The notes under the pieces were generated by a model. It was not told where the DNA came from, made no database searches, and saw nothing but the letters and a program-made list of their open reading frames with translations. A stretch of 64,000 bases of DNA from an uncultured Candidatus Rokubacteria bacterium. Lineage in GTDB: Bacteria; Methylomirabilota; Methylomirabilia; Rokubacteriales; DASRDR01. Shown here piece by piece: positions 3,183-37,365 of the stretch. Position 1 is the stretch's first letter, and each line of letters opens with the position of its first letter. Location of the stretch: contig CAWDVE010000017.1 in NCBI GenBank assembly GCA_963805625.1, positions 640,001-704,000 of the forward strand, written 5' to 3'. The position numbers and the translations under genes are program-made.

Positions 3183-3214
3183 CGACATCATGTCGCGTGG
3201 GCGACATCCTGACG
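3183..3214. promoter_or_regulatory. 32-bp palindromic enhancer candidate, copy 1
   Basis: CGACA-tca-TGTCGC-gtgg-GCGACA-tcc-TGACG, centred about 146 bp upstream of the predicted start site. Confidence 0.75.
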
Positions 3215-3280
3215 GCGCCGGGCGACGCGACAGTCGTCGGATTTCGAGCTGGCGAGACTATCCCGCGCGGGTTACCGAGT

Positions 3281-3412
3281 TCAAGCGGATGGCCCCTTGG
3301 CGCACTCTGGACACACCTCCCTCTCGCTGTCGTACGCGATACCGTGCGCCTTACACCGAACCATTTGGACCTCGGAGCCCTTCGCCGGCTGGCTAGGCGT
3401 CGGGGTTGTCAC
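3281..3412 (-). CDS. Small hypothetical protein with CxxH...CxxC motif (43 aa)
   Basis: GTG start; sequence TTPTPSQPAKGSEVQMVRCKAHGIAYDSEREVCPECAKGPSA; co-oriented with neighbours. Confidence 0.5.
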   Translation of the reverse strand: MTTPTPSQPAKGSEVQMVRCKAHGIAYDSEREVCPECAKGPSA

Positions 3413-3491
3413 GGGGCAGGGTGGACAGGGTGTCCCCGCACCGGCGGAGGGCATCACACGACCCGGCGGCATGGACCGTGCACCCCTGCCG

Positions 3492-3803
3492 TCAGTTGTG
3501 ACGCCACTGCCCATCGACCCACACCGAGCCAGTCGCCTGTGTCTCCCAGTGGCCCGGCACCCAGACGAAGCCCTGTGGGGGGATGGTCCAATGTCCCGGC
3601 ACCCAGACGTACGTCCGGCTGGCCGGCTGCCACGTGTAGGACCCGGGGACCCAGACGTAGCTCGGGCCGGGCTGCGCCGGCACCGCTTCCACGGGAGCCG
3701 CGGGCGGCGGTGGCGGGGCCTGCATCGTCCTGGGCGGCATGTAGCAGCCGCCCAGGAGCAGGAGCGACATCAGGAGCCCTTCCAGGATGGACCGACTCTT
3801 CAT
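3492..3803 (-). CDS. YXWGXW (WXXGXW) repeat lipoprotein
   Basis: Lipobox LLGGC, Pro-rich linker, repeats YVWVPGSYTW / YVWVPGHW / FVWVPGHW / VWVDGQW. Confidence 0.88.
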   Translation of the reverse strand: MKSRSILEGLLMSLLLLGGCYMPPRTMQAPPPPPAAPVEAVPAQPGPSYVWVPGSYTWQPASRTYVWVPGHWTIPPQGFVWVPGHWETQATGSVWVDGQWRHN

Positions 3804-3966
3804 ATTCTGCTCCGTCCGTACTCGCGCGTTCGGTCGATCGAACGAGCGAGGCTGGCTGCGTCGTCAACGTTCGCCGCCCTCTTCCCCGCTACAGGCGATG
3901 CTGCGGTTCATGCGCTTCGTTCTCCCTGGCACTCGATCGATCCGCACCTTCTGAGTGGGCGAGCGG

Positions 3967-3982
3967 AGCAAGGCACGTGCCA
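3967..3982 (-). promoter_or_regulatory. sigma54 -24/-12 promoter
   Basis: Minus strand TGGCAC-GTGCC-TTGCT, a perfect consensus match. Confidence 0.85.
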
Positions 3983-4056
3983 GTGGAGTCGCCGCCCCGC
4001 ATGTGTCCGCGTGCGGCAACTACCCGCGAAATCGATGAGAATGCCTCGAGGCTCAA

Positions 4057-4088
4057 CGCCACCCTGTCGCCCGCACGCCGGGCTGTCG
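4057..4088. promoter_or_regulatory. 32-bp palindromic enhancer candidate, copy 2 (degenerate)
   Basis: CGCCA-ccc-TGTCGC-ccgc-ACGCCG-ggc-TGTCG, about 117 bp upstream of the predicted start of the 3967 promoter and just upstream of the kinase gene. Confidence 0.55.
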
Positions 4089-4119
4089 CGCGTCGGACGC
4101 GTGCTAAACTGAGGCCCCC

Positions 4120-5598
4120 GTGGGGCTGAGACTTCGCCTGTTCCTACTCCTCCTCGTGCCGATGGTGCTGGTCGTCGCCCTCTTCGCATACGTTCTAGTC
4201 CAGGATGAGCGCGCCCAGCGGCGGGCGGAGTTCGACCTGCGCGTGAGCGTCACGAGCGCGGCGATCCGACTCGCGGTGGAGAACGCGCTTCGCAGCGGCA
4301 CGCCGGTCGACGTGGAGCGTCTGGCCCGTGATCTGGTCGTAAAGCAAACCGAGATCGTCCGGATCCGATTGCTCGACCGGAGCCTTTCGCCACGCGTCGA
4401 CGCGAACCTTCTCACCGGCGACCCCGGCGTGCCCCTCGATCGACATCGCCAGGTCCGGGACACGGGCCAGCCTGCGGTCGTGGAGCACCAGAGTGGCGGC
4501 ATCCGGCTCCACACGATGCTGCTCCCGGTCCGGTCCTCCGGGAACGACGAAGGGGTGCTCGAGATCGCCTTCATCGCGGGCCGCCTGGAGGCCGAACTTC
4601 TGGGCGAGAGCTACAAGATCGCGCTGCGGGGCGGTGTCCTCGTCCTCTTGCTGGGCCTCGTTGTCTGGGTGGCCCTGCAGCGCCTCGTGTTCCGGCCGGT
4701 CGCCGACCTGATGCAGGGCATCGAGCGTGTCGCGGCCGGCGAGTCCCGCGCGCCCGTCCCGGTCCGGAGCCGCGACGAGCTGGGGAAGGTGGCGGCGGCC
4801 TTCAACCGGATGACAGAACGGCTGGAGGACGCTCGCGGGCGGGCGGAGACCGAGACGGACCGGTCGCTCGAGCTCATGCGCCGGCTACGACAGACCGAGT
4901 CGCTCGCGATCGCCGGCAAGCTCTGCTCGAGCATGGCCCACGAGGTGGGGACGCCGCTCAACATCATCGCCGGGCGCGCCGAGCTGACACTCCGCGCGCT
5001 GCCAACGGACTCGCCGCTCCGCGAAGACCTCAACGTCATCATCACCCAGATCGACCGGATCTCCCGGATGATCCGTGCGGCCCTGGATCCCTTCCGCCAG
5101 CGAGAGCCCGAGCGAGCGGCTGTCGCGCCCGCGTCGGTCACGGACGCGCTGCGGCCGCTTCTCCAGCACTTCGCCAAGGGTCGCGGCGTGACCCTCGCGG
5201 TCTCGATCCCGCCGGCCCTTCCGCAGGTGTGCGTCGACCCCGGGCACCTCCAGCAGGTCCTGATCAACCTCCTGACGAACGCCATCGAAGCGACTCCGGC
5301 GGGGGGGCGGGTCGAGGTCAAGGGTGCCCGCCGGGCCGACGAAGGTCGGCCCGGCGTTGTCATCACGGTGCGGGACACGGGCGCAGGGATCCCGGAGAAC
5401 GTCCTACCCCGGATCTTCGATCCCTTCTTCAGCACCAAGCCCGCTCGCGAAGGGGCCGGTCTCGGCCTCGCCATCTGTCGGGACCTCGTGAGGTCAAATG
5501 GAAGCGAGATCCACGTGGCGAGCACGCCCGGCGAGGGCACCACCTTCACCGTCTGGCTTCCAGAGGCCGGGCCTGAAGACAGGAAGGAGCAGTCATGA
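4120..5598 (+). CDS. Membrane sensor histidine kinase with HAMP domain
   Basis: Two TM segments, HAMP (SRDELGKVAAAFNRM), H-box AHEVGTPLN, N-box NLLTNAIEA, G boxes DTGAGI, FFSTK, GAGLGL. Confidence 0.95.
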   Translation: MGLRLRLFLLLLVPMVLVVALFAYVLVQDERAQRRAEFDLRVSVTSAAIRLAVENALRSGTPVDVERLARDLVVKQTEIVRIRLLDRSLSPRVDANLLTGDPGVPLDRHRQVRDTGQPAVVEHQSGGIRLHTMLLPVRSSGNDEGVLEIAFIAGRLEAELLGESYKIALRGGVLVLLLGLVVWVALQRLVFRPVADLMQGIERVAAGESRAPVPVRSRDELGKVAAAFNRMTERLEDARGRAETETDRSLELMRRLRQTESLAIAGKLCSSMAHEVGTPLNIIAGRAELTLRALPTDSPLREDLNVIITQIDRISRMIRAALDPFRQREPERAAVAPASVTDALRPLLQHFAKGRGVTLAVSIPPALPQVCVDPGHLQQVLINLLTNAIEATPAGGRVEVKGARRADEGRPGVVITVRDTGAGIPENVLPRIFDPFFSTKPAREGAGLGLAICRDLVRSNGSEIHVASTPGEGTTFTVWLPEAGPEDRKEQS

Positions 5599-6962
5599 AG
5601 CCCCGAATCCTCGTGGTGGACAACGATCCCGATATGGTGGCGCTTCTCCGGCGTCATCTGGAGGTGGAAGGCTGGGCGGTGACGGCCGTGACGGGAGGGG
5701 AGGACGCCCAGACCGCGCTCGGGCGCGAGGAGTACGCGGTCGTCCTGACTGACCTCGTCATGGAGCCGGTGGACGGCCTGGCCGTGCTTCGAGAGGCCCA
5801 GCGCGTCCAGCCACGGGCGCGCGTGATCCTCATGACCGCGTTCGGGAGCCTCGAGAGCGCGATCGATGCCATGCGTCAGGGCGCGTACGACTACCTGACC
5901 AAGCCCTTCAAGCTTCCGGAGCTGTCGCTGGTCGTCAAGCGGGCCGTGGAGGACCAGCAGATCCGGGAGGAAAACCGTCGGCTCCGGGCCGAGGTCGAGC
6001 GCCGCTACAGCTTCGACAATATCCTCGGCCGGTCGAAGGCGATGGAGGCCGTGTTCGAGCAGATCCGGGTGGTGGCGGACACCGATGCTCCGGTCCTGCT
6101 CCTGGGCGACAGCGGCTCGGGCAAGGAGCTCGTGTCGCGGGCGATCCACTGGCACAGCGGCCGGCGCGAGGGTCGGTTCGTCGCCGTCAACTGTGCGGCC
6201 ATTCCTGAGACCCTGCTGGAATCCGAGCTGTTTGGCCACGAGAGGGGAGCCTTCACCGGCGCTGACCGGAAGCGGCGGGGCCTCTTCGTTGAGGCCCAGG
6301 GTGGCACCCTCCTTCTCGATGAGATCGCCGAGATGCCCCAGTCACTGCAGGTCAAACTGCTCCGTGCCCTCCAGGACCGCGTCGTCCGGCCTGTGGGCGG
6401 CAACGAGGAGATCAAGGTGGATCTGCGTCTCATCAGCGCGACCAACCGGGATCTGCCGGCCTTCGTGCGGCAGGGGAAGTTCCGGGAGGACCTCTACTAC
6501 CGTCTGGCCGTCATCCCCATCCGGATCCCCAGCCTCAAGGAACGGCCGGAGGACATCCCGCTTCTCGCCGAGCACTTCCTGAAGCGGGCGGCGGCCGGGA
6601 TGGGCAAGGAGATCGAAGGCTTTGACGAGGAGGCACTCAAGTGGCTCCTCGAGCACAACTGGCCGGGGAACGTCCGCGAGTTGGAGAACGTCGTCGAGCG
6701 GGCGGCGACCCTCGCCAAGGGCCGGCACATCACGCGGGACGACCTCCGGATCGAGTTCACCCCCGGCTCGACCGGCGAGCTGGGGGTGCGCCCATCCCTG
6801 GCCGAGGTGGAGAGCCAGTACATCCGCCGCGTCCTCGACGAGGTCCGAGGCGACAAGCGGGCCGCGGCCCGTATCCTCGGGATCAGCGTACGGACACTTC
6901 AGCGGATGCAGGCCAACATGATGCGCGTGGGCCCAGGGTTCACGGACCAGCAGTCGTCATGA
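5595..6962 (+). CDS. sigma54-dependent response regulator / enhancer-binding protein (NtrC/AtoC family)
   Basis: REC domain, Walker A GDSGSGKE, GAFTGA loop, LLLDEI, WPGNVRELEN, and a C-terminal Fis-type HTH (AAARILGISVRTL). Confidence 0.96.
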   Translation: MKPRILVVDNDPDMVALLRRHLEVEGWAVTAVTGGEDAQTALGREEYAVVLTDLVMEPVDGLAVLREAQRVQPRARVILMTAFGSLESAIDAMRQGAYDYLTKPFKLPELSLVVKRAVEDQQIREENRRLRAEVERRYSFDNILGRSKAMEAVFEQIRVVADTDAPVLLLGDSGSGKELVSRAIHWHSGRREGRFVAVNCAAIPETLLESELFGHERGAFTGADRKRRGLFVEAQGGTLLLDEIAEMPQSLQVKLLRALQDRVVRPVGGNEEIKVDLRLISATNRDLPAFVRQGKFREDLYYRLAVIPIRIPSLKERPEDIPLLAEHFLKRAAAGMGKEIEGFDEEALKWLLEHNWPGNVRELENVVERAATLAKGRHITRDDLRIEFTPGSTGELGVRPSLAEVESQYIRRVLDEVRGDKRAAARILGISVRTLQRMQANMMRVGPGFTDQQSS

Positions 6963-6964: not shown

Positions 6965-6980
6965 TGGCACGCGCTTTGCT
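6965..6980 (+). promoter_or_regulatory. sigma54 -24/-12 promoter
   Basis: TGGCAC-GCGCT-TTGCT, a perfect consensus match immediately after the regulator stop codon. Confidence 0.85.
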
Positions 6981-7028
6981 ACATTCAGTGGCATGGGAGT
7001 CTCCTGGTTCGGCAGAAGGGAGGTAGTC

Positions 7029-7442
7029 GTGCGTGAGGCCGACGACCGTCCGGGGCCGACCGCGCGGGTGCTCGTCGTCGATGACGACGACGAGATGCGG
7101 GCTCTCCTGCGCAGAACGCTCGAAGCCGACGGATTCCAGGTGACGGAGCGGGATCGTGGCACGCGCGTGGTGGAGACGCTCCGCGGGGCGCCGTTCGATC
7201 TGATCATCCTGGACAAGGAGATGCCTGGGCTCACTGGTCTCGACCTCCTGCCGGTGCTGCATCGCGAGTTTCCGCAGGTGCCCGTGGTGCTCGTGACCGC
7301 GTTCGGCGGCGGTCAGGTCGCGGCGAGCGCGCTGCGGCTCGGCGCGGCCAGCTATCTCGAGAAACCCTTCAAACTCGGGCAGCTCCGCGATGCCATCGAT
7401 GGCCTCGTCTCGCGGTCAGGAGACGAGCCCCGAGCGAGCTGA
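7029..7442 (+). CDS. Single-domain response regulator receiver protein
   Basis: VLVVDDD, DLIILDKEMPGLTG, VTAFG, YLEKPF. GTG start after an AGGGAGG RBS. Confidence 0.9.
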   Translation: MREADDRPGPTARVLVVDDDDEMRALLRRTLEADGFQVTERDRGTRVVETLRGAPFDLIILDKEMPGLTGLDLLPVLHREFPQVPVVLVTAFGGGQVAASALRLGAASYLEKPFKLGQLRDAIDGLVSRSGDEPRAS

Positions 7443-9119: not shown

Positions 9120-9540
9120 GGGCTCAGCCCTTCGCGTCAGCTCGAGTGACCCGAACCGGGCCGGCACGTCCGGGCCGCCGGCGAACTCCCCCGTGAGTCG
9201 ACGGCCGGACTCGAGCGTCAGCACCAGCGCGCCGCCTCCGACCAGGTCGAAGAAGAGGCCCCGGCGCGTGAGCCGTCCTTCACGGCGCACCGTGTCCGAG
9301 AGGCCTCCGTCGACGAAGGTCACCTGGGCGACGACGGTGGGGAGACCCGGCTCCCGGGCGAAGATCATCTCGACGGCGCCGCCGCGCGTCCCGTCGTCCG
9401 CGGTCCACCGTCCGGTCCACACCCCGACCAGGTCATCCGACCGCGCGGGGGCAGCGGGGGCGGCCGGGGACGTTCGAGCCGCGGGCCCCGCCACGGCGAA
9501 CGCCGCGAGGGAGAGACGCGGGGATGATTCGCAGTCGCAT
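9120..9540 (-). CDS. Hypothetical exported protein (frameshifted)
   Basis: ATG at 9540 with GGAGG RBS and a hydrophobic leader broken by an indel; core DDLVGVWTGRW...FGSLELTR. The end is approximate. Confidence 0.55.
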
Positions 9541-9579
9541 GGTCTGCCTCCAGAGTCCGCGGGGTGGCGCGGCTCGCCG

Positions 9580-9750
9580 TCACTGGCCCTTGCGGTGGCC
9601 CTTCCGCGCGTGCTGCTTCAGGACTGTCCGCGCCGCCACCTCGGCGGCTCGCCGGCCGTAGCGGCCCTCCTTCTGCGCCTGTTCCTTGATGTGCTCGTAC
9701 TGCCGCTGCTCCTTCGCACCCACCCCTTGGAGATGCCGTCGTCCGGGCAT
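9580..9750 (-). CDS. Small basic protein of the RQYEHIKE...AARTV family (56 aa; not in the ORF track)
   Basis: Manual translation MPGRRHLQGVGAKEQRQYEHIKEQAQKEGRYGRRAAEVAARTVLKQHARKGHRKGQ; GGAGG RBS. Confidence 0.8.
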   Translation of the reverse strand: MPGRRHLQGVGAKEQRQYEHIKEQAQKEGRYGRRAAEVAARTVLKQHARKGHRKGQ

Positions 9751-9771
9751 GGATTCGTCCTCCGTTCTCGC

Positions 9772-10002
9772 TCAGGCGCGAAGCTGTGACACCCCGACCT
9801 TGCGCGCGCAGTGGGCGCAGCAGTACAGGCGGCCCTCCGAGTCTTCCACTCCGTGGCCGATGATCCGGCACCCGCAGTGATCGCAGGTGGGCGCCAGCAG
9901 ATGAATGGCACACTCGAAGCAGTCGAAGGTGTGCCGGCGCCCCCAGGCGTCTATCGACAGGGTCTTGTCATAGTCGTTTCCGCAGACGTCACATCGAGCC
10001 AT
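9772..10002 (-). CDS. Prokaryotic metallothionein-like Cys-rich protein
   Basis: CDVC...FDCFECAIH..APTCDHCGCRIIGHG...YCCAHCA. Confidence 0.85.
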   Translation of the reverse strand: MARCDVCGNDYDKTLSIDAWGRRHTFDCFECAIHLLAPTCDHCGCRIIGHGVEDSEGRLYCCAHCARKVGVSQLRA

Positions 10003-10444
10003 CTCGGACCTCCTCGACGTCGATGAGAGCCAGCTTCGACCGGGGGTCGAAGCGCCGCCGCAGGTGCCCGGGCGGCTGGATCAGGATGACCTCCAGGGTT
10101 GGCCGGACGCGCGCCTCCAGGAGGTGTCCACCGTGCGCTGTCCCGTCGCGCTTGCCCACGACGACGTGCGCGTGAACCTTGGGGACGGCGCCCTCGAGCG
10201 CCACGTCCCCCACCAGGGACAGCACCTCGACCTGCTCGCGGATGGCGACCCGTACGTAGTCCTTCTGGGACCAGTCGAAATAGCCCAGCGCCACGTGCTC
10301 GAAGGCGCCGATCGCCGTGAAGTGCCCCGACGTGAGCCGCTCGCGCTTCGCGAAATCGAGGAGGCCCTGCATGGGCTCCTCGCCGGCCTCGAACACGAGG
10401 GCGATCGTGCGGGTGCCGTCAGCGTGCAGGACCTTCGCCTTCAT
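9989..10444 (-). CDS. PPC domain (DUF296) protein
   Basis: FTAIG, EVLSLVG, HAHVVVG, GGHL, TLEV motifs. Confidence 0.9.
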   Translation of the reverse strand: MKAKVLHADGTRTIALVFEAGEEPMQGLLDFAKRERLTSGHFTAIGAFEHVALGYFDWSQKDYVRVAIREQVEVLSLVGDVALEGAVPKVHAHVVVGKRDGTAHGGHLLEARVRPTLEVILIQPPGHLRRRFDPRSKLALIDVEEVRDGSM

Positions 10445-10474
10445 GAGGTCTTCATGGTCTGACGGGTCGCGCCG

Positions 10475-10726
10475 TCAGGCGGCACCCGTGAGGCCAGTCT
10501 CGCGCTCGAGCATCTCCCGCACCACCCACAGCCGGCCGCACGTGCCGCACAGCACCCCGGGGCCCAAGCGGCGCGTGACGAGCCCGTCGCAGTGACGGCA
10601 CCGGCCACTCACGTCCGTGGCCCGGTCGAACGTCACGTGCGCGTCCGACCAGCGACGCGCCCGTTCCAGAAGGGCTTCAGGGCCGTAGGGGTCGCGACCT
10701 CGGCGGGAGCGCGGGTGCCGGGGCAT
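10475..10726 (-). CDS. Hypothetical zinc-ribbon protein
   Basis: CRHC...CGTC; AAGGAG RBS; first gene after a sigma54 promoter. Confidence 0.65.
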   Translation of the reverse strand: MPRHPRSRRGRDPYGPEALLERARRWSDAHVTFDRATDVSGRCRHCDGLVTRRLGPGVLCGTCGRLWVVREMLERETGLTGAA

Positions 10727-10782
10727 CGGGTGTCTCCTTTCGCTAGGGGACCGACACGTTTCATCGTCGACACCCTGGAGTG

Positions 10783-10798
10783 AGCAAGCTCTGTGCCG
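10783..10798 (-). promoter_or_regulatory. sigma54 -24/-12 promoter
   Basis: Minus strand CGGCAC-AGAGC-TTGCT. Confidence 0.8.
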
Positions 10799-10886
10799 GA
10801 CAGCGATCCCGGCCTCAATTCGCGAGGATCAGCGGATCTCTGGTCGAGGGGACAGGCCTCACGCTCGATGCGTGCGGGGGAGGCGC

Positions 10887-10918
10887 CGACACGGTGTCGT
10901 CCCTCCGACAGCCTGACG
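10887..10918. promoter_or_regulatory. 32-bp palindromic enhancer candidate, copy 3
   Basis: CGACA-cgg-TGTCGT-ccct-CCGACA-gcc-TGACG, about 131 bp upstream of the predicted start site. Confidence 0.72.
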
Positions 10919-10935
10919 CGGGAAAGGATCCGCGA

Positions 10936-12555
10936 TCAGGCGCGGCGGATGCGGTCGATCTCTCGATCGAATCCCGGGAGAATGGCCTGGAAGAACGCGT
11001 TCTGGATCAGCCGGACGATGGTTTCCGCGGTGCTGGTCTGCGGGTTTTCGATGCGGCCGCTGACCGAGGTCTTCGTGGCGACCTCGTCCCGGGGCGCGTT
11101 CTCGAGGAGCTTCGCCACGCCGCCGACCAGGCCCTCGTAGAGTTTCCGGAAGAGACTCTTGTCACGGTCCTGGCGCTCGTCATAGACGTCCATGTCGCGG
11201 AACAGAGGCTTCACGTACCCCACAATCTGCCGATCTTTGATACGCAGCTGCGAATAGAAGGAGAACCAGCCGCCCTTCACGTCGAACTTCCCGTAGGTGC
11301 GCAGAAGCTCGTTCATCGTGCGCATCTCCGTGTCGTCGATGCGGACGTCGATGTCGAAGTCCGGCCCTGAGGTCTCCGGACGGAACGTGGCGCGCACGAC
11401 GCTGGCCCCGCTACCCATGAACTTCCCGGTCAGCACCGCCACCGCGGTGCCCTCCGTGAAGTGGTTGCTCAGGTTCTCGAGCGCCAGGTCACCCTCTGTG
11501 ATGAAAACGCGGTAGCTCGAGGTGGTGGCCTTGTTGACGTAGCCCACACTGGCGCGGGATGCGTGGGCGCGATCGACGCGGAGCAGCAGCCCTGACACGT
11601 TCGTCGCGCGCTCGGCGGCCTTGCCGACCTTCTCCCTGATGACCCGTTCGGTTGGCGCCGTCCGCGGCGTATGGACGAAGTCGGCGTGCAGGCCATCCAG
11701 CTGTACCTCGTGCAAGTGCAGCATCTTGAACCAGGGAGCGTACTCGACCTCGCCGGCCGCCGACATCGTGCCTTCGTTCAGAATGAGGTTGTAGCGGGCT
11801 GCGATCGGCTTGAAGTAGTCGAGGGCCACGCGCTCGAGGGCCAGGGTGGCGCGCAGCCCCGGATGCGGCTCAGCGAGAAAGTCGGCGCGGCCATCGAGCA
11901 CGAGCCTCCCGGAGTCGAAGACGATGGCCTCCAGCCAGAGGCTGGAGGGGTACGTATGGTCCTGCAGGCGGATGTTCCGGATGTTCTCGGCTCGGAACGT
12001 GACCTGCCGGAGGTGCAACGGGCGACCGCTATCCTCCACGTAGGTCAGGTCTCCTTCGGCCACCCGGAGCACGTTGATCTTGAAGGGGTAGATCGCCTCG
12101 AGCGCTTCCTGCCATCCCCGGGTCTGGACGGGCACCGGGTCTTCCGCCTCGGTCTTGAGCTGCCGGCGGTTGACGTTGATGATCGGCCGGTCGATCAGGA
12201 AGTCGGCGACGAGGTGGCCACGCGCGAGCTGTCTCCACTGGATGCTCGCGCTGAGCCTCGGGATCCGCGCCACGGGAGGATCCGGATTGAGATCCTGGAT
12301 CACGACCAGATCGAGAAGATCGACCGAGCCTCCCATGACGTGGAAATCGAGTCCGCGCAGGGTGACGGCGTATCCGCGCAACCGCTCGTTCAGCCGGTGC
12401 TCCGTCTGGCGGCGGAGCGGCTCGTCGAGGAGGCGATCGAGTGCCGCAAGCGTGAGGGCGATCACCGCGACGGGGATGACGAGCCACTTCCAGCGCCGCC
12501 GTCCGAACCCGGCGGCGCTCCACGCGCCGGCGGACGGTGCTTCACCATCGTCCAC
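10936..12555 (-). CDS. DUF748 domain protein (AsmA-like repeated beta structure)
   Basis: N-terminal TM anchor; GYVKPLF, LYEGLVG, DEVAT, IQNAFFQAILPGF C-terminal motifs. The start is uncertain (ORF open to 12684). Confidence 0.8.
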   Translation of the reverse strand: MDDGEAPSAGAWSAAGFGRRRWKWLVIPVAVIALTLAALDRLLDEPLRRQTEHRLNERLRGYAVTLRGLDFHVMGGSVDLLDLVVIQDLNPDPPVARIPRLSASIQWRQLARGHLVADFLIDRPIINVNRRQLKTEAEDPVPVQTRGWQEALEAIYPFKINVLRVAEGDLTYVEDSGRPLHLRQVTFRAENIRNIRLQDHTYPSSLWLEAIVFDSGRLVLDGRADFLAEPHPGLRATLALERVALDYFKPIAARYNLILNEGTMSAAGEVEYAPWFKMLHLHEVQLDGLHADFVHTPRTAPTERVIREKVGKAAERATNVSGLLLRVDRAHASRASVGYVNKATTSSYRVFITEGDLALENLSNHFTEGTAVAVLTGKFMGSGASVVRATFRPETSGPDFDIDVRIDDTEMRTMNELLRTYGKFDVKGGWFSFYSQLRIKDRQIVGYVKPLFRDMDVYDERQDRDKSLFRKLYEGLVGGVAKLLENAPRDEVATKTSVSGRIENPQTSTAETIVRLIQNAFFQAILPGFDREIDRIRRA

Positions 12556-12592
12556 CCATTCGGGCCTCCCGGCGCTCGACGGCGATCGAGCC

Positions 12593-13015
12593 TCAGGCGG
12601 CTTCGAGGGGAATCTCGCGCGGGAGTTTGCGGACCAGGATCGCGTCTTGACGGGCTCGACGCTCCACCTGCCCTTGGCAGTCACGGCAACGCAAGGCGAA
12701 GGGAAGCGCGCGAAGACGAGGCAGACCGATGAACGCGTCGCACTCCTGACAGAAGCCGTACCGGCCGTCAGATAGCCGCGCGAGCGCGTCCTGGATCTGG
12801 ACGACCTGTTGAGTCCGCTGATCCATGAGAGTCACCTGGATCTCCGTGTGGAGGGTCTCCGCGGCATGGACGGAGATGTCCGTCAGGCTCGTGCTCTCGG
12901 CGGTCCGGGCCTCCGTGACGACGGCCCGCAAGGACCCCTGAAGGCGTGTCAGCTCGTCCCGCAGGAACCGCTCCAGCTCAGCGATGATGCGCCGATCGAG
13001 CTTCACTGGGCTCAT
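12593..13015 (-). CDS. TraR/DksA C4-type zinc finger protein
   Basis: Coiled coil plus GRYGFCQEC...RLRALPFALRCRDCQ; AAGGAG RBS before ATG 13015. Confidence 0.88.
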   Translation of the reverse strand: MSPVKLDRRIIAELERFLRDELTRLQGSLRAVVTEARTAESTSLTDISVHAAETLHTEIQVTLMDQRTQQVVQIQDALARLSDGRYGFCQECDAFIGLPRLRALPFALRCRDCQGQVERRARQDAILVRKLPREIPLEAA

Positions 13016-13554
13016 GTCTGATCTCCTTCTCCCATGCCTGGGGCGGACGTGCGCATTCGGCGGGGCCGGTCGGGACGCAGGTCGCGCGGCCCTGCCTTCG
13101 AAGAAGGCTTCGACGCCGGCGACGAGGGCGGGCACGAGCGCTCGCTCCGCCGCGTCGGCGACGTCGTCGATCATCCGGTTCACCAGCCCTTCGATGCGCG
13201 AGCCGAGCTTCTGCCACGAGGCGGTGATCGCCGCGAGGTGGTCGACTTGCGGCTCCAGCCGCGCCGGGATCCGGGCAACGGTATCCATGCCCGCGGCGGC
13301 AGATGTCCACTGACGTCCGTTGGCTGCTGGTGGCCGTTGCGTTGGATCCCGCGCGCGATTCGGCGGCCGACGGCGACCCCGAGCAGGGCGGCCGCCGCCA
13401 GGATCGTGGCGGGGTATCGCTCGACGTAGGTCTGCCACTGCATGGCCTCACCCGCTTTCCAGCGCAGCTCGCCTGCCGTCCGGGAGATGGAGGCGCGAGT
13501 CGCCTCGATGTCACGGCGCAGACGGTCGATGTCTACACTCCGTTGCGAATCCAT
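13012..13554 (-). CDS. DUF3618 domain protein (frameshifted near 13320)
   Basis: IDRLRRDIEATRASISRTAGEL...YVERYP plus a TM segment, continuing in the adjacent frame. The end is inferred. Confidence 0.72.
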
Positions 13555-13913
13555 TCCGCGTCCCTTCGCAGCTCGCGGACCGTCTCTCGGGCGAGCCGCT
13601 GGCGTTCCAGGCTCCTGATCGCCAGGAGGCCGAGTCCCACGCCGGTCACGACGAGACCTCCGCCGACGATGGCCAGACCTCCTGGCGTCGAGCCGACGAG
13701 ATGTCCGACCCACAGTCCCAGGGCGAGCAGCAGGAAGGCGACTCCGACGCCCGCTCCGACGACCCCCGCGACCAGCACGCCGACGTTCTTCGCGGCGCGC
13801 GTCGCCTCCTGCGTGAGCTCGGCCCTGAGGAGCTCGAGCCGCTGATCGATGAGCCGGCGGAGGTCGGCGACGAGTCGGGTCGCCAGCTCCAAGAGGCTTA
13901 CCGATTCGCCCAC
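13533..13913 (-). CDS. YqjE-like membrane protein (Phage_holin_3_6 family)
   Basis: SLLELATRLVADLRRLIDQRLELLRAEL, two TM helices, and ETVRELRRDAEWI. Confidence 0.82.
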   Translation of the reverse strand: MGESVSLLELATRLVADLRRLIDQRLELLRAELTQEATRAAKNVGVLVAGVVGAGVGVAFLLLALGLWVGHLVGSTPGGLAIVGGGLVVTGVGLGLLAIRSLERQRLARETVRELRRDAEWIRNGV

Positions 13914-13954
13914 GCGTCGGGTCGTCACGGGCGCCCTCGTCGCCCTCTGGAGCG

Positions 13955-14338
13955 TCAGCGACGGCCCGCGGCGCTCAGCCAGCCGAGCACGAGCCCGGCG
14001 CCTGCCGCGATGAGCAGCGCGGTCATCGGTTGCTCGCCGCGTATACCCCACGACGTCGTGCCGCACCTTCTCCACGCCGCCGTCGCGGTACTCGCTCATC
14101 TTGTCGCGAGCCTGCTGAACGGCGTCCCCGACGTACTCCCGGGCGCCTTCGACGTACTCCTTCGTCTGCTCCACGGCCCCCTGGACGTAATCCTTCGCCT
14201 CGGTGGCGTAGTCCTTGGATCGCCCTTGGCGCCGTGCATGCGCTGGCGAGCGGTGTCGGCGAGGTCGCGCATCCGGACCTCGCCACTCGCCCACCGGCGC
14301 CTCTCTGCGACGTTTCCTCAGCGAACGCGATCTTCCAT
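13955..14338 (-). CDS. DUF883 / ElaB-YqjD family tail-anchored protein (frameshifted)
   Basis: AGGAGG RBS; helical repeats (AKDYVQGAVEQTKEYV); C-terminal EQPMTALLIAAGAGLVLGWLS lies in a shifted frame. Confidence 0.8.
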
Positions 14339-14380
14339 GGTGTCCTCCTGGTCCGAGATTGCTTCGTTGCCACGGACTTA

Positions 14381-25836: not shown

Positions 25837-25850
25837 GGATGGTCCTGGAG

Positions 25851-26873: not shown

Positions 26874-26993
26874 CGCCCGGCGCCGCGAGGCCTCTCCCGC
26901 GGTCTCGGCAGGGCCCGGGCCACGCCGCGAGGCGTCCCGGGCCCTGTCCGCTCCTTTCCATCGGTCGTCACTCGCCGTCGAAGGAGGTCCTCG

Positions 26994-27641
26994 ATGGCAG
27001 CGCACACCACTCCCAAGACTCCGAAGGCCTACCGGAAGCGCGAGTTCGACCTCAAGGGGCTCGCCGGCATCTCGGACGCCCAGATCGAGGAGCACCTGAC
27101 TCTCTACGCCGGCTACGTCAAGCAGGTCAACGCGCTGAACGAGGAGCTGGCCGAGATGCTCGCTCGCGGCAAGGCGTCGGGCAAGAGCCCGGAGTTCGCC
27201 GAGCTGACGCGACGCCTGGGCTTCGAGTACAACGGAATGATCCTTCACGAGTACTACTTCGGTAACCTCCGGGCCGCCGCCAATCCGAAGCCCCCGGCGG
27301 GATCGGGGCTGACGGAGGCCCTCGTCGGGTCCTTCGGATCGGCCGATCAGTGGCGGACCGACTTCCAGGCAATCGGCGAGATGCGCGGGGTCGGGTGGGT
27401 GATCCTGTTCCAGGATCCCGTGACCGATCGCCTCACGAATCACTGGATCACGCTCCACCAGGACGGCGTGCCCGCGGGGTTCAAGCCGCTCCTGGTCATG
27501 GACGTCTGGGAGCACGCCTTCATGCGGGACTACAAGGCGACCGAGCGCGACCAGTACATCGAGGCGTTCTTCCGGAACATCGACTGGTCCATCGTCGAGA
27601 CCCGGCTCCAGGAAGAGCGCGCCGTCCGGCCCGCAGCCTGA
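26994..27641 (+). CDS. Fe/Mn superoxide dismutase family protein
   Basis: EEHLTLYAGY, ILHEYYF, GVGW, MDVWEHAF carry the four expected metal ligands. Confidence 0.9.
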   Translation: MAAHTTPKTPKAYRKREFDLKGLAGISDAQIEEHLTLYAGYVKQVNALNEELAEMLARGKASGKSPEFAELTRRLGFEYNGMILHEYYFGNLRAAANPKPPAGSGLTEALVGSFGSADQWRTDFQAIGEMRGVGWVILFQDPVTDRLTNHWITLHQDGVPAGFKPLLVMDVWEHAFMRDYKATERDQYIEAFFRNIDWSIVETRLQEERAVRPAA

Positions 27642-27667
27642 GCATCCGTCACGGTATTCCCTCGACT

Positions 27668-27699
27668 CGTCACGGTGTCGCCGCGGCGACACCGTGACG
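27668..27699. promoter_or_regulatory. 32-bp palindromic enhancer candidate, copy 8 (perfect palindrome)
   Basis: CGTCACGGTGTCGCCG|CGGCGACACCGTGACG, about 118 bp upstream of the predicted start site. Confidence 0.82.
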
Positions 27700-27774
27700 G
27701 AGGTGCGGCTCTCCGGACCGTTGGAATCCGGCCCGTTTCCGGCCGCCGGACGCCCGATCTCGGGCGAACTGGCT

Positions 27775-27790
27775 CGGCACGCGACTTGCC
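27775..27790 (+). promoter_or_regulatory. sigma54 -24/-12 promoter
   Basis: CGGCAC-GCGAC-TTGCC. Confidence 0.8.
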
Positions 27791-27862
27791 CTGACAAGTA
27801 CACAGAGGGGCCGCGCCAGTGCTCGTGGCCGACCGACGAAAAACAGGAGGGGGGCGACAGCA

Positions 27863-27937
27863 ATGCCGTTGATCCTGTGGCTTCTGGGAGTGCCGCTCAG
27901 TCTGATCGTCATCCTGTGGCTCATGGGCGTGATGTAG
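27863..27937 (+). CDS. 24-aa membrane micro-protein
   Basis: Manual translation MPLILWLLGVPLSLIVILWLMGVM; AGGAGG RBS; first ORF after the promoter. Confidence 0.75.
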   Translation: MPLILWLLGVPLSLIVILWLMGVM

Positions 27938-27988
27938 GCGTGCCGCGACCGCTGTTCTCGGGGAGGGAATCGATGCGGCGAATGTGAG

Positions 27989-28168
27989 ATGGGAAGCCTG
28001 ATCGGGATCGCATTGCTCATGGGCACCGTGCTCACGGGGTGCGATCAGGGCCCGGCACAGAAGGCGGGCTCGAAGATCGACCGGGCCCTGGACCGGCTGA
28101 GCGGCAAGGGGCCCGTCGAGAAGGCCGGAGAACGGATCGACAAGGCGGTGGAAGAGCTCAAGAAGTAG
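27989..28168 (+). CDS. Small lipoprotein (59 aa)
   Basis: MGSLIGIALLMGTVLTGC-DQGPAQKAGSKIDRALDRLSGKGPVEKAGERIDKAVEELKK, with an internal GPxxKAGxxID repeat. Confidence 0.8.
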   Translation: MGSLIGIALLMGTVLTGCDQGPAQKAGSKIDRALDRLSGKGPVEKAGERIDKAVEELKK

Positions 28169-28237
28169 CGGAGCCTGATCGGACGCCCGCCCGTGGGGCG
28201 GCGCCCGGGGCGACTACCGACCGGTAGAAGGGAGGGA

Positions 28238-28414
28238 ATGGCGATGATGTCGTTGGCGCTGACGTTCCTGATCGTGGGACTCGTGGCCGGGCTCCTTGGG
28301 CTCTACGGAGTCGCGGCCGTGGCCTCACAGATCGCGTGGGTGCTGTTCCTGGTGGGGGTGGTGCTGCTCGTGCTCCACATGGCCAGGACGCGGCGATTGC
28401 CGCCCGCAGTCTGA
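28238..28414 (+). CDS. DUF1328 (UPF0391) small membrane protein
   Basis: LALTFLIVGLVAGLLGLYGVAAVASQIAWVLF. Confidence 0.85.
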   Translation: MAMMSLALTFLIVGLVAGLLGLYGVAAVASQIAWVLFLVGVVLLVLHMARTRRLPPAV

Positions 28415-28433
28415 CGACGGCGGAGGGCGTGCC

Positions 28434-28751
28434 ATGAAGGAGAGCCTCGTCGCGGCGATTGGCATCTGGCTCGTGTTCGTGCTCGTGTTCGCTTCGCTCG
28501 TCGGGGCTCAGACCGGACAGGCTCCGGTGCCGGCCTCGAAGGTCGCGCCGATCGCGAAGACCGAGGTCAGCGGGAAGATCAAGAGCGTGGATCCGGCCGG
28601 CACAACGGTTCTCCTCGAGGACGGCACCCGATTGATGATCCCGGGTTCCGTCAACGTCAACCCTGCCGCGCTGAAGGCCGGCGCGACGGTGAAGGCGAGC
28701 ATCGAGGAGAAGGGCGGTCAGAAGATGGTGACCGCGATCCAGGTCAACTGA
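28434..28751 (+). CDS. Small secreted OB-fold-like protein (DUF1344-like)
   Basis: Signal peptide; GKIKSVD...LEDG...LKAGATVKASIEEKGGQKMVT. Confidence 0.72.
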   Translation: MKESLVAAIGIWLVFVLVFASLVGAQTGQAPVPASKVAPIAKTEVSGKIKSVDPAGTTVLLEDGTRLMIPGSVNVNPAALKAGATVKASIEEKGGQKMVTAIQVN

Positions 28752-28764
28752 GGAGGTGAAACTC

Positions 28765-28854
28765 GTGGCGCATCAATATCGCTGTGAGAAGTGCGGACAC
28801 CTGTCGGACAGACCGGGCAACTGCTGCGGTCAGCCGATGAAGGAGATTTCCTAG
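28765..28854 (+). CDS. 29-aa Cys-rich micro-protein (desulforedoxin/zinc-ribbon-like)
   Basis: Manual translation MAHQYRCEKCGHLSDRPGNCCGQPMKEIS; AGGAGGTG RBS. Confidence 0.75.
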   Translation: MAHQYRCEKCGHLSDRPGNCCGQPMKEIS

Positions 28855-28861
28855 CCACACT

Positions 28862-28910
28862 GCGGGGAGCGGGCGGTCGGGCCCGCTCGCCGCTTCCCGT
28901 TCCCTTTCTC
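28862..28910 (+). terminator. Probable terminator hairpin after the micro-protein operon
   Basis: Stem gcggggagcgggc / gcccgctcgccgc followed by a pyrimidine-rich tract. Confidence 0.45.
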
Positions 28911-29117
28911 TCACTCTCCTCACTCGTGTGTCCGAGGCACCTCCGCTGGGCGGCGGCGCTCAATCCGGAACGCTCGATCGGAACGCGCAGACCGATCCCC
29001 TGGTGTCGACTTGGCCTGGCGGAGAGCGCGCCCGCTGACTCCGCCGGAGTCGATGGGTGTGCTCGAGCAGCACGGTCGCCGCCGGGGCCTCGGAACCCGC
29101 ATGGTACGCTCGAGCAC

Positions 29118-33156: not shown

Positions 33157-33172
33157 GGCAAGTTCCATGCCG
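33157..33172 (-). promoter_or_regulatory. sigma54 -24/-12 promoter
   Basis: Minus strand CGGCAT-GGAAC-TTGCC. Confidence 0.78.
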
Positions 33173-33247: not shown

Positions 33248-33279
33248 CGTCAGGTTGTCGTCGGCGCGACATTGCGACG
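33248..33279. promoter_or_regulatory. 32-bp palindromic enhancer candidate, copy 9
   Basis: CGTCA-ggt-TGTCGT-cggc-GCGACA-ttg-CGACG, about 118 bp upstream of the predicted start site. Confidence 0.78.
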
Positions 33280-34169: not shown

Positions 34170-36194
34170 TCACCGAGATTGGCTCCGATGCGCGAGGTTC
34201 GCCACGACGGCGGCCAGCTCGCCGGGGTCAACCGGCTTGGTCACGAATGCATCGAATCCCGTGCCGAGCGCCTGGATGCGGGTCTGGGTCCCAGCGTGCG
34301 CCGTCAGCGCGATCAGAGGGATCCGGCCGCCACGATCGGTCGGTCGGGCTCGAATCTGTTCGGCCAATGCGAACCCGTCCACGTTGGGCATGGCCAGATC
34401 GCTGACCACCACATCGAATGGCTGGCAGTCGAGTGATTCAAGGGCGCCCTGCACCGTAGTCGCCGCAGTCACCGTGGCACCGTAGCCCTCGAGAAAGTGG
34501 GTCAACAGGAGGCGCGAGTCCCTCTCGTCATCCACGACGAGGACGCGGATGCTGTCGCACCGTGGTCCGTGGAGCATCGGCCGTGAAAACAGGGCCGCTC
34601 GTGACCGGTCGTCAACGTCCGCGGGACGCAGGGGCAACGCTACCGTAAAGGTCGCCCCGAGGCCCTTCCCCGGGCTCTCGGCCGTGACGCTTCCCCCCTG
34701 GAGTTCGACGAGATATCGCACGATGGCGAGCCCGAGGCCCAGGCCGCCGTGGGTCCGCGTGAGAGACGGGTCCGCCTGGCGAAAGCGCTCGAAGATGTAA
34801 GGCAAGGCGTCGGGGCTGATGCCCTGTCCGCTGTCGCTCACTCGGATCGACGCGGTGGCCTGAGTCCGATCAACGGCGACCGTGACTTCCCCCTGAGGCG
34901 GAGTGAACTTGACCGCGTTCGAAAGCAGATTCCAGCAGACCTGCTGAAGCCGGGCGGGGTCTCCCACGACGACGGTCGCGCCCGGTTGGATGTGGCTTCC
35001 AAGGCGAATGGCCTTCGCCTCCGCCGCCGGGCGGACGGTTTCGAGCGCGGCGACGATCACCGGCCCAAGGTCGACGGGCTGGATCTCCAGGCGCAGCTTT
35101 CCGGCAGTGATCCGGGATAGATCGAGCAGGTCTTCGATGAGCTGGACCTGATGGCGCGCATTGCGCTCGATGCTTTCGAACGCCCGCGCGAGCGTGTCCG
35201 AATCGCCCTTCAGCCGTATGACCTGGGCCCAACCGAGAATGGCACTCAGAGGGGTCCGCAGCTCGTGGGAGACGGTCGCCAGGAATTCATCCTTGGCGCG
35301 GTTGGCCGCCTCCGCCTCGCTTCGGGCGTGTTGCTCACGGGCGAGCAGGTCCGCGCGTTCGCGTTCGAGGCGCTTGGTCAGGCTGATGTCGCGCGCGATT
35401 TTCGATACCCCGATGATGCCGCCCGCCCGATTCCTCACTGGGGAGACTGTCAACGAGATGTTGACGAGGGTGCCATCCTTTCGGATCCGCATGGTGTCAA
35501 AGTGATCCACGACATCGCCCCGGCGGATTCGCGAGAGCACCTCATCCTCCTCGCCCCGACGGTCGGCCGGAATGATCAGCGTGATGTGGTGTCCGATCGC
35601 TTCGCTCGCGGTGAATCCGAAGATGCGTTCGGCCGCGGGGTTCCACGACGTGATCACGCCGTCCAGCGTCTTGCTGACGATGGCGTCGTCCGAGGAACGG
35701 ACAATGGCGGCCAAATACGAGGAGTCCGCAGTCATCGCCTCGTACGCCGTGATATCCCTGGAGATCCCGATGACCCCGATGACGTGCCCGGCGGCGTTTC
35801 GGTGCGGTGACTTCGTCGAGAGGTATGTCGTCTTCTCGCCACTCCGTTCCACACTCAACTGGAACCGACGCGGCTCTCCCGTTTCCATCACCACGGTGTC
35901 GTGTGCCTGGATCTGGGCGGCTGTTTCGGTCGGAAAGAGATCACGATCGTCGTGACCGAGGATCTGTTCCCGAGAAAGCCCGATGGCCCGACAGCAGGCG
36001 AGATTCACCAGCACGTACTGGCCGGCCCGGTTCTTCAGATAGATCGCATCGTCGGCGCCGTCAAAGGCGGCCTGAATCAGGTCTTGCATCGACTCACGCA
36101 CGTTCTCCCGAGCATAGGAGAGCGTTCGGGCTGCGTCAACCAGCGGCCGGTCCGGCCTCGCCTCGTGATCGACGGGTCGCCGATTCGCGCCCAC
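34170..36194 (-). CDS. Cytoplasmic PAS-PAS hybrid histidine kinase with receiver domain
   Basis: Two PAS domains, KDEFLATVSHELRTPL, NLLSNAVKFT, GGLGLGL, and REC VLVVDDE..SDLAMP..ALTA..TKP. Confidence 0.95.
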   Translation of the reverse strand: MGANRRPVDHEARPDRPLVDAARTLSYARENVRESMQDLIQAAFDGADDAIYLKNRAGQYVLVNLACCRAIGLSREQILGHDDRDLFPTETAAQIQAHDTVVMETGEPRRFQLSVERSGEKTTYLSTKSPHRNAAGHVIGVIGISRDITAYEAMTADSSYLAAIVRSSDDAIVSKTLDGVITSWNPAAERIFGFTASEAIGHHITLIIPADRRGEEDEVLSRIRRGDVVDHFDTMRIRKDGTLVNISLTVSPVRNRAGGIIGVSKIARDISLTKRLERERADLLAREQHARSEAEAANRAKDEFLATVSHELRTPLSAILGWAQVIRLKGDSDTLARAFESIERNARHQVQLIEDLLDLSRITAGKLRLEIQPVDLGPVIVAALETVRPAAEAKAIRLGSHIQPGATVVVGDPARLQQVCWNLLSNAVKFTPPQGEVTVAVDRTQATASIRVSDSGQGISPDALPYIFERFRQADPSLTRTHGGLGLGLAIVRYLVELQGGSVTAESPGKGLGATFTVALPLRPADVDDRSRAALFSRPMLHGPRCDSIRVLVVDDERDSRLLLTHFLEGYGATVTAATTVQGALESLDCQPFDVVVSDLAMPNVDGFALAEQIRARPTDRGGRIPLIALTAHAGTQTRIQALGTGFDAFVTKPVDPGELAAVVANLAHRSQSR

Positions 36195-36335
36195 CCATCG
36201 GCTCCATTTCCCGCTTCAGTCTACCCCGGCCATCTCAACGCACCACACCGGGCCGTTCAGGAACATGGCGCCCTCGAATCGGACGAACGCGGGAATCTCG
36301 CCGAGGGCATGCTTGGTCAGGTCGGTTAGTGATCA

Positions 36336-36351
36336 GGCAACATGCGTGCCA
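36336..36351 (-). promoter_or_regulatory. sigma54 -24/-12 promoter
   Basis: Minus strand TGGCAC-GCATG-TTGCC, upstream of the hybrid kinase. Confidence 0.8.
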
Positions 36352-36615
36352 ATTCTTAGGAGAGGCGACGGGGAACTGTGGTCGGGTGGGCGGCTGACCG
36401 CACACCAAGCAAGAACGATCGCGCTCGTGATTCCCGGTAGCCTTCGGGAAGCCGGTGGCTGGCGTCTGCCACGAGTGGGTGGCTCTCGGAACACCCGGGT
36501 CACACCGGTTCGTTGGCCTGGTGCCACGTTGCCGGGACGAGACGCCTGGCCGGCGATAGTCGGGTGCACCTGAGCAGGGCCGCGACGTAGAGGACAAAGC
36601 GTTGTCGGACACGGG

Positions 36616-37014
36616 TCAAGTCGCCTCAACGTCGAGGTCTAGGCGGTCGATGTCGTCGATGGTGGCGCAACTGACAGGGGGGATGAATGCACTCGAAGAC
36701 GGCTGGCCCTGGCTGTTCTGCACGGAGTTCGCGAAATCGAAGTTCGAGAACGGGGCGACCTCGAACTCGGCGGTAGATGTGGCAATCACGTTGCCAGAGT
36801 TCTTGGCTTCGTAGGTGATTCGGACCGTCGCGCGGCGGTTTCCGGTATTGGTGGCGTGGCCCTTGACCGCGCAGCGGTTGCCCGCCACACTCTCCTCTCC
36901 CTCACCGGTGATAGTCACGCTGGAGAGCCCCTTTGAGCTCGTATCACTCTCGCAGCTGGCGAGAAGAAGCACGGTCAAGCTCGCCATCGCCGCGCCGCCC
37001 AGCCAGTGGCGCAT
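36616..37014 (-). CDS. Hypothetical lipoprotein
   Basis: AGGAGG RBS; lipobox LASC; beta-rich body. Confidence 0.75.
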   Translation of the reverse strand: MRHWLGGAAMASLTVLLLASCESDTSSKGLSSVTITGEGEESVAGNRCAVKGHATNTGNRRATVRITYEAKNSGNVIATSTAEFEVAPFSNFDFANSVQNSQGQPSSSAFIPPVSCATIDDIDRLDLDVEAT

Positions 37015-37333
37015 CGGGGTCTCCTCCTGAGGTTCGTATCGTGCCGTTGGACGCCCTCGGAAGCTCCGTGAGGCGCCCCGCCCAAGGCGACATCGGGTCG
37101 TTGAATCGTCATCCTGTCGCGAACGGCCCTGGCGACCGTCCGCCGAGCCGCGCCACTGGAGACCGCGTTCTTCCGCGGTCATGCCGGAAATGGCTACAGC
37201 AAGCCGTGGGCCACCCCCCGAGACCTCAAGATTCTCGACTCAAGATTCTCAAGATGTCTGACCGAATGCCTCTGGGCATCCTCCATGCGCCCGCTGGGTC
37301 GAATAGTCTGCTCGGCCTTACTGCGGCTAGCTC

Positions 37334-37365
37334 CGTCACGGTGTCGTCCAAGCGCCAGCCTGTCC
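37334..37365. promoter_or_regulatory. 32-bp palindromic enhancer candidate, copy 10
   Basis: CGTCA-cgg-TGTCGT-ccaa-GCGCCA-gcc-TGTCC, about 87 bp upstream of the predicted start site. Confidence 0.62.

Follow-up and report, generated by a model that had tools for sequence, protein, structure and literature searches.

The kinase-activator locus and its sites

The window analysed here, a 64,000-nucleotide stretch of contig CAWDVE010000017.1 from an uncultured Candidatus Rokubacteria bacterium (Methylomirabilota), carries a two-component locus and repeated copies of a 32-bp palindromic motif upstream of promoters of the sigma-54 (-24/-12) type. The locus begins with a membrane sensor histidine kinase (4120-5598, +) that has a periplasmic domain and, by Pfam, HAMP, HisKA and HATPase domains. 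The periplasmic part itself has no Pfam match and is single-Cache-like by Atlas features, which is a lead only. Behind the kinase lies an NtrC-family sigma-54 activator (5595-6962, +), the likely reader of the motif, composed of a receiver, an AAA+ domain and a Fis-type helix-turn-helix (HTH) with the helix SVRTLQR; its D53, GAFTGA and Walker A/B motifs are intact. A strong -24/-12 element (6965-6980, +) directly follows the activator stop codon and precedes a single-domain response regulator gene (6993-7442, +). A receiver gene adjoins the activator in many relatives. The genome encodes rpoN, with a profile score over the cut-off.

The 32-bp pattern matched the window eight times with three or fewer mismatches and was absent from each of 100 shuffles. 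The ten copies named in the preliminary description are real, but a further one at 37088 had been missed, and the total is eleven. All are predicted two-unit activator sites. They serve 14 sigma-54-type elements, one more than first counted, at 84-162 bp (about 85-160 bp as first given), and four sites rather than three lie between divergent pairs of elements.

The site at 3183-3214 (one mismatch) serves the element at 3064-3079 (-), ahead of a nucleotidyltransferase gene. The site at 4057-4088 (four mismatches) serves 3967-3982 (-), ahead of a gene for a WXXGXW protein, and overlies the likely -35 region of the kinase-activator operon, and that at 10887-10918 (two mismatches) serves 10783-10798 (-), ahead of genes for a small protein and a PCC/DUF296 protein. 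The copy first placed at 14455 is a 31-bp site at 14456-14486. It stands between 14381-14396 (-), which precedes genes for a small protein, a holin-X/YqjE-type protein and a DksA/TraR protein, and 14556-14571 (+). Its seven mismatches stem from a left 3-bp centre that lacks one base; its counterpart on contig C26, where the island has a second copy, has the full spacing. The site at 16136-16167 (three mismatches) has a weak element at 16007-16022 (-), ahead of genes for CsbD and a BON protein. The site at 18028-18059 (two mismatches) is placed between 17970-17985 (-; AI-2E transporter) and 18139-18154 (+; phosphodiesterase-like gene), and the site at 25963-25994 (one mismatch) between 25851-25866 (-; TreZ-like hydrolase, glycogen debranching enzyme and DUF4383) and 26111-26126 (+; PRC-BON protein and Fe/Mn superoxide dismutase). 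The perfectly palindromic copy at 27668-27699 (no mismatch) serves 27775-27790 (+), ahead of genes for a small protein, DUF1328 and DUF1344. At 33248-33279 (one mismatch), the site serves 33157-33172 (-), ahead of glycine-zipper, VTT, DUF6496 and cardiolipin-synthase-type genes. The last site, at 37334-37365 (three mismatches), lies between 37198-37213 (-) and 37410-37425 (+; CBS-domain protein). The added eleventh site (37088-37119) is downstream of where the promoter at 37198-37213 (-) is predicted to start, at a distance of 84 bp.

The intergenic placement reported earlier holds for the likely genes. The sites at 3183 and 14455 overlap only over-long upstream extensions of open reading frames (ORFs), and the site at 16136 lies where a frameshift extends the AI-2E reading frame; the intact copy of that gene on C26 aligns only down to 16260. 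A weak match at 13675 (19 bits) is located within a gene. The right-hand 26 kb is indeed empty of copies, with no match above 12 bits beyond 37365, and Rfam and tRNA scans of the window gave no matches. Elsewhere in the window, a near-palindromic stretch at 36780-36796 scores as a -24/-12 element on both strands, an element at 36336-36351 (-) ahead of a PAS hybrid kinase has no motif in range, and two tandem metallo-beta-lactamase-fold genes at 47128-48953 share 88% DNA identity.

The second copy of the island, on contig C26, is 87-99% identical overall and encodes the same activator without any difference, and the region from about 9.4 to 27 kb of the window is 87-92% identical to its C26 counterpart (L178 and L179). 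In the window copy, the TreZ-like, debranching, AI-2E, BON and other genes that are intact on C26 are frameshifted, and several site-to-promoter distances are off the helical phase described below where their C26 counterparts are in phase. One possibility is that the window copy represents a second strain that was poorly polished; others are an assembly error or a decaying duplicate. Genome contamination is 6%, and four public RNA runs aligned to 9500-29000 gave contigs of relatives only.

Promoter geometry and site anatomy

A motif matrix refined on this genome, without the use of promoter information, scored 57 sites above 17 bits, of which 11 lie in the window, 10 on C26 and the other 36 in the rest of the genome; when reversed, it gave none above 18 bits. 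Crude gene calls span 81% of the genome, and 51 of the 57 sites fall outside them. Most sites have a sigma-54-type element nearby. A -24/-12 matrix set by hand from the known consensus placed an element in range (predicted start 70-170 bp away) for 35 of 57 sites and, among random intergenic places, for 134 of 3000. When the matrix was trained on other genomes instead, an element was present at 60-200 bp for 40 of 57 sites and 77 of 1000 random places.

Site-to-promoter distances were then pooled over 184 distinct sites from this genome and from loci of relatives, with 26 Pandoraea-type loci, eight loci of other taxa and one duplicate excluded. A -24/-12 promoter was found at enhancer distance for 145 of the 184. 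The 155 distances within 70-170 bp peak near 85, 96, 107, 118, 129, 140 and 151 bp, and their helical phasing has a period of 11.0 bp (R 0.56, n = 155; the maximum of 2000 jittered sets was 0.26); they are not independent events, because the pool includes orthologous promoters. An 11-bp phasing matches the trace that would be expected of a looping activator required to face the polymerase. A palindromic, multi-copy motif could also be a mobile or structural repeat (a repetitive extragenic palindrome, a miniature inverted-repeat transposable element or a terminator) with no role in activation. However, the spacers and flanks carry no conserved sequence and Rfam offers no match, and the helical phasing together with the freedom of the spacers contradicts such a repeat, which we regard as extremely improbable. 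A downstream-enhancer arrangement was rejected as a general account of the sites that have no promoter, since it explains only 3 of 39. Integration host factor (IHF) sites between enhancer and promoter are common but not universal; the exact E. coli IHF consensus was present in none of the 155 linkers.

The sequence information of the motif is limited to four 5-bp half-sites, and none is found in the flanks or spacers. The 32-mer allows two parses. One has an inner TGTCG-N6-CGACA flanked by outer halves, and the other has two CGWCA-N3-TGWCG palindromes 19 bp apart. In the second parse, the unit is a 13-bp palindrome, (C/T)GWCA-N3-TGWC(G/A), with two units per site placed 19 bp centre to centre. 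When spacers were scanned in this genome and 20 regions of relatives, the 3-6-3 spacing alone was prominent (104, against at most 19 and at most 21 for other spacings). Half-site correlations ranged from -0.12 to 0.13 over 88 sites, equally within the reach of both parses. Neither 13-bp units on their own (2 of 132) nor isolated 16-bp cores (1 of 27) were enriched near sigma-54 elements, which suggests that a working site requires the two units jointly. In the regions upstream of 618 promoters, unit pairs stood at 19 bp in 154 cases, at 20 and 21 bp in five each and at 18 bp in three, and the reversed matrix gave no pair at 19 bp.

Natural variants bear on the choice between the two parses. 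The promoter behind the activator orthologue carries two 13-bp units 20 bp apart, with unchanged 3-bp centres, in four rokubacterial genomes (G018, G096, G140 and G157) and in seven of ten sister-order genomes examined (G043, G045, G046, G050, G051, G054 and G057). The middle gap, which is 6 bp here, is 7 bp at these matching promoters, and it is 5 bp at those of L222 and L048, again with fixed 3-bp centres. The sole exception to constant centres is the 14456 site, where this assembly is rich in indels. Of 170 phylum genomes, 19 contain the exact 20-bp pattern, including seven of 15 in family f7; these seven all belong to the ten f7 genomes that have a homologous activator, and two f8 genomes without a detected activator homologue match the pattern as well. 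Because syntenic promoters vary the middle gap only and keep the 3-bp centres, the dimer site is most likely the 13-bp palindrome. The preliminary description took the inner and outer half-sites as a sign of interleaved dimers or an unusually wide footprint. This does not agree with variants in which the middle gap alone changes, and the nested appearance is most likely a by-product of two ordinary palindromic dimer sites in tandem. At the level of sequence, each enhancer carries two or more dyad-symmetric sites, and the invariant 6-bp centre of NifA- or CRP/FNR-type sites is not seen, given the 7-bp and 5-bp variants. In the sister-order loci L209, L214, L215 and L220, the distances of the two units from the predicted start are about 206 and 226 bp, and in several sister-order genomes the units overlap the last codons of the activator gene, where they are visible as D-S-V-S-like protein tails.

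The consensus of the NifA site is TGT-N10-ACA, and the inner 16 bp of the motif fit it. One printed form of the site is TGT-N10-TCA, as it appears in PMC3916325. The same activator might thus place one dimer on the inner TGTCG-N6-CGACA, in the NifA manner, while its other subunits hold the outer half-sites. The inner half-sites are somewhat better kept than the outer (mean 7.0 versus 5.7 bits), one full match adjoins a nifA-like gene in Xanthobacter, and activator motifs of Desulfovibrio often have TGT/ACA half-sites, as described in PMC4641369. Nevertheless, we consider this arrangement unlikely, because the middle gap is 7 bp in the 11 genomes named above and in the wider set with the exact 20-bp pattern, or 5 bp in L222 and L048, with the 3-bp centres fixed throughout, and because there is no information beyond the four half-sites. 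A further difference from NifA is that conservation here follows the 13-bp palindrome. The activator also contains a receiver domain and lies in the tree outside the branch that holds the NifA-like protein of Xanthobacter.

The likely reader of the motif

The activator at 5595-6962 is the sole HTH-family match among 79 window ORFs scanned. The closest solved HTH is that of an NtrC-family regulator (4L5E/4L4U), and the closest named homologues of the activator belong to Rokubacteria/Methylomirabilota. Although the genome encodes about 35 other sigma-54 activators, the SVRTLQR helix was found, among the activator C-termini compared from this genome, only in 5595-6962 and its identical C26 copy. 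In the tree, 5595-6962 is the only paralogue of this genome inside the orthologue clade (29 rows; Shimodaira-Hasegawa-like approximate likelihood ratio support 96).

The motif and the activator occur together. Among 124 genomes of the window's order, with an orthologue threshold of E <1e-160, 41 have both the motif and the orthologue, 75 have neither, three have the motif alone and five the orthologue alone. All of the five have either a degenerate site of two to three mismatches (G016, G121 and G140) or a 20-bp site (G096 and G157) near the gene, and the three carry one to three sites each. The motif is patchy within genera (for example, 4 of 8, 2 of 15 and 3 of 6 genomes), so the co-occurrence does not come from shared descent alone. 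Among the matches listed, 27 of 30 family-f2 genomes have the motif within about 7 kb of the orthologue; in G095, it lies near a close paralogue.

Another protein could read the motif, either a different sigma-54 activator or a member of the CRP/FNR family. The inner half of the motif resembles the CooA site, at least two CRP-type HTH proteins are encoded besides the other sigma-54 activators, and no orthologue was detected in the three genomes with one to three sites. However, presence and absence of the motif track the 5595-6962 orthologue even within genera, the sites adjoin the activator gene, and no second HTH-family match was found among the scanned window ORFs. A CRP-type reader is further opposed by the 7-bp variants, which break the fixed 6-bp geometry of CRP sites. 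We therefore hold a different reader to be improbable. The proposal that the motif is the operator of the island's activator is very likely correct, in view of the phasing, co-occurrence, linkage and tree. The regulon is not confined to the island, since 36 of the 57 sites lie outside both the window and its C26 copy.

The 19-bp-spaced pattern was present in 44 of 170 phylum genomes; the 124 genomes of the window's order account for all 44, and the 46 from other orders for none. An exact scan of 185,579 genomes, one per species, returned 95 stretches, 80 of them titled: 43 from Rokubacteria/Methylomirabilota, 22 from Pandoraea, four unlabelled and 11 from other taxa. Spread of the system beyond the phylum was rejected, as the matches outside it are mainly one conserved Pandoraea site without a clear sigma-54 element. 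That site (L051:2001-2032 and 21 other titled loci) consists of two 17-bp TGCGACA-N3-TGTCGCA-like palindromes 19 bp apart in a long intergenic region and recurs in many species of the genus. The Xanthobacter match (L100:2001-2032) is a full one between nifA-like and sufB-like genes and is likely to represent NifA sites that extend by chance. A Polyangiaceae locus (L186:1501-1551) shows three CGACA-N3-GTCG-type units at a 19-bp period, with related copies elsewhere and no activator orthologue; 2 of 251 genomes of its phylum match. Five other labelled genomes carry one or two sites each. Outside the phylum, the activator orthologue was found on one Binatia-labelled contig among five genomes tested.

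The promoter of the kinase operon appears to be of a different kind. An extended -10-like element, TGnTAAACT (4102-4110, +), lies 10-18 nt before the kinase start, similar elements are present in L179, L120 and L098, and a consensus scanner found no full sigma-70 promoter at the operon. Within the genus, the 4057 site overlies the -35 region. This arrangement suggests transcription by a sigma-70-family factor with possible autorepression by the activator. RpoS prefers C at -13, and this base is present at -13 of the element in three of four genus-level upstream regions compared, so that a cascade from RpoS is possible. Homologues of the activator in sister orders have 54-59% identity and mostly the helix SKRTLYR, and the order of kinase, activator, -24/-12 element and downstream genes is retained. 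The shift from 19- to 20-bp spacing alongside the change from SVRTLQR to SKRTLYR provides a natural experiment on the packing of two activator dimers on DNA.

These features allow a working scheme to be proposed. The membrane kinase (4120-5598) would sense an envelope or water-stress cue and phosphorylate D53 of the activator. A pair of dimers, bound next to each other at the site, may then nucleate the active activator ring, which would loop to the sigma-54 holoenzyme at the -24/-12 element on the same helix face and open the promoter.

Predicted target genes and the breadth of the proposed regulon

In the window, the genes downstream of the served promoters encode CsbD, BON, PRC-BON, DUF1328, DUF1344, holin-X/YqjE-type, DksA/TraR and AI-2E proteins, together with TreZ-like and glycogen-debranching enzymes, Fe/Mn superoxide dismutase, cardiolipin synthase and VTT, CBS, glycine-zipper and WXXGXW proteins. 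Outside the window, targets were drawn from 92 genes that read away from sites within 2.6 kb, many of which are unrelated neighbours or have no family. They include LigD, a second cardiolipin synthase, a GH15 trehalase, a TreS-like alpha-amylase, SodC, YegS, BrkB/YihY, topoisomerase IB, aldo-keto reductases, gas-vesicle proteins, hemerythrin and several receivers and kinases, as well as an RsbR-S-T-X stressosome operon followed by two hybrid kinases. By gene family, this is a broad set of oxidative, osmotic, DNA, envelope and unknown-function stress genes. The stressosome operon and hybrid histidine kinases (L168:3447-10186, -) have a strong motif upstream and only a weak -24/-12 element, with the motif downstream of its start; no SigB was found. 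The two gas-vesicle genes lie at L172:5254-5989 (-) and the topoisomerase IB gene at L176:3495-4712 (+), downstream of motif sites.

OsmY/BON, YtjA/DUF1328, YqjE, trehalose enzymes, cardiolipin synthase and SodC are targets of RpoS or SigB. BfmR of Acinetobacter baumannii is an OmpR-type regulator that acts with sigma-70, whereas the activator here is of the sigma-54 AAA+ type. The BfmRS system nevertheless offers a parallel, as a two-component system over general-stress and desiccation genes (trehalose, sodC) in a bacterium without RpoS, according to PMC6181384. The EcfG regulon described for Sphingopyxis in PMC7083833 includes CsbD and ku-ligD, and CsbD and ligD are shared with the present list. 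EcfG, RpoS and SigB are sigma-70-family factors, in contrast to the -24/-12 promoters and enhancer found here, yet an RpoS-like gene is present in this genome.

The enhancer also has known parallels. NmpR of Myxococcus xanthus, as presented in PMC11841059, is likewise an NtrC-like response regulator with two palindromic sites per promoter at a preferred spacing and a multi-operon sigma-54 regulon derived from a consensus. Its unit is GCGCA-N5-TGCGC, its sites are separated by 14-15 bp, and the genes under its control are those for oxygen use, whereas the unit here is CGWCA-N3-TGWCG, with 6-7 bp between sites and general-stress genes as targets. The unit also contains the GT-N7-AC of E. coli NorR when both variable bases fit (CGTCA-N3-TGACG), and several adjacent NorR sites act together (PMC2831303), in line with the lack of promoter enrichment of lone units here. 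NorR differs in being a GAF protein of the one-component type whose three sites belong to a single operon, in contrast to the two-component activator with two sites at about 40 promoters. The enhancer design is therefore an ordinary one, NtrC/NmpR/NorR-like, and what appears to be new, judged from sequence, is the wiring of a general-stress gene set to sigma-54 in Methylomirabilota. A search of the literature outside subscription journals and RegPrecise turned up neither this motif nor a sigma-54 general-stress regulon in the phylum. Rokubacteria, Methylomirabilota, CsbD and OsmY are absent from the main text, as far as it was covered, of a 2025 cross-phylum sigma-54 survey (PMC12316311).

Taking these lines together, we consider it likely that the site consists of tandem 13-bp palindromes in 11-bp phase which are bound by two dimers of the 5595-6962 activator and drive a general-stress-type regulon of about 40 promoters. 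Several points weigh against this view. No recognisable sigma-54 element lies 60-200 bp downstream of 17 of the 57 sites, including those before ligD, sodC and the stressosome operon, and the strong 6965 element has no upstream site in this genus, although many genomes elsewhere in the phylum have the motif at the corresponding position. The statistics are overstated, as the pool holds orthologous promoters and kin genomes; the motif matrix was refined on this same genome; and the tree came from a quick search rather than a finished careful one. No site was present in the 6 kb upstream of the otsA, treT, glgB, ku and usp homologues. Finally, the genome encodes an RpoS-like group 2 sigma factor of 337 residues, located behind surE and an M23 gene, that has no site upstream. 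This factor scores below the RpoS cut-off, and it stands in the surE-nlpD locus, the usual position of rpoS. NepR was not found in the genome search, and SigB/F/G gave no match over the cut-off. The classical general stress response has a sigma-70-family driver; the promoters of the present targets are of the -24/-12 type, in an analysis that did not look for overlapping RpoS promoters. In genome G029, a group 1/2 sigma-70 gene (L146:3254-4582) lies in a motif-bearing island downstream of a served promoter, and its best match in its own genome (L195) has no site.

It is also possible that the regulon answers a narrow cue, such as osmotic stress or desiccation, with trehalose and membrane remodelling, and works downstream of or beside RpoS rather than as a general response. 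We give this an appreciable chance, although one clearly short of even. It would agree with the RpoS-like gene, with the extended -10-like element of the kinase operon and its C at -13 in three of four regions, and with the position of ku, otsA and usp outside the regulon here. It would also agree with the genes that adjoin the activator in several other families and the sister orders, which are mainly otsAB, treT, treZ and glgB; dksA is found there too. On the other hand, the targets span oxidative, DNA, membrane and unknown-function genes together with a stressosome, kinases and receivers, which is broader than an osmotic regulon.

General stress sets have so far been placed under three kinds of sigma-70-family factors and the two-component system of Acinetobacter. 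If the general-stress reading is true, sigma-54 with an activator powered by ATP would add another solution to these, in a group that ranks among the commonest uncultured soil bacteria. The activator, site and promoter form a ready test pair for reconstitution in E. coli, and the precise motif enables regulon calling in dozens of genomes. The small proteins of unknown function under the motif become candidates for stress proteins. On a tentative view, to which we assign a probability not far below even, Methylomirabilota, an abundant uncultured phylum, would represent a fourth wiring of the general stress response, in which a membrane kinase and a sigma-54 AAA+ activator took over the targets of RpoS, SigB and EcfG, perhaps fed by a self-induced stressosome and hybrid kinases. 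Such a system would be gained and lost as a unit within genera, and it would mark dry-soil-tolerant lineages.

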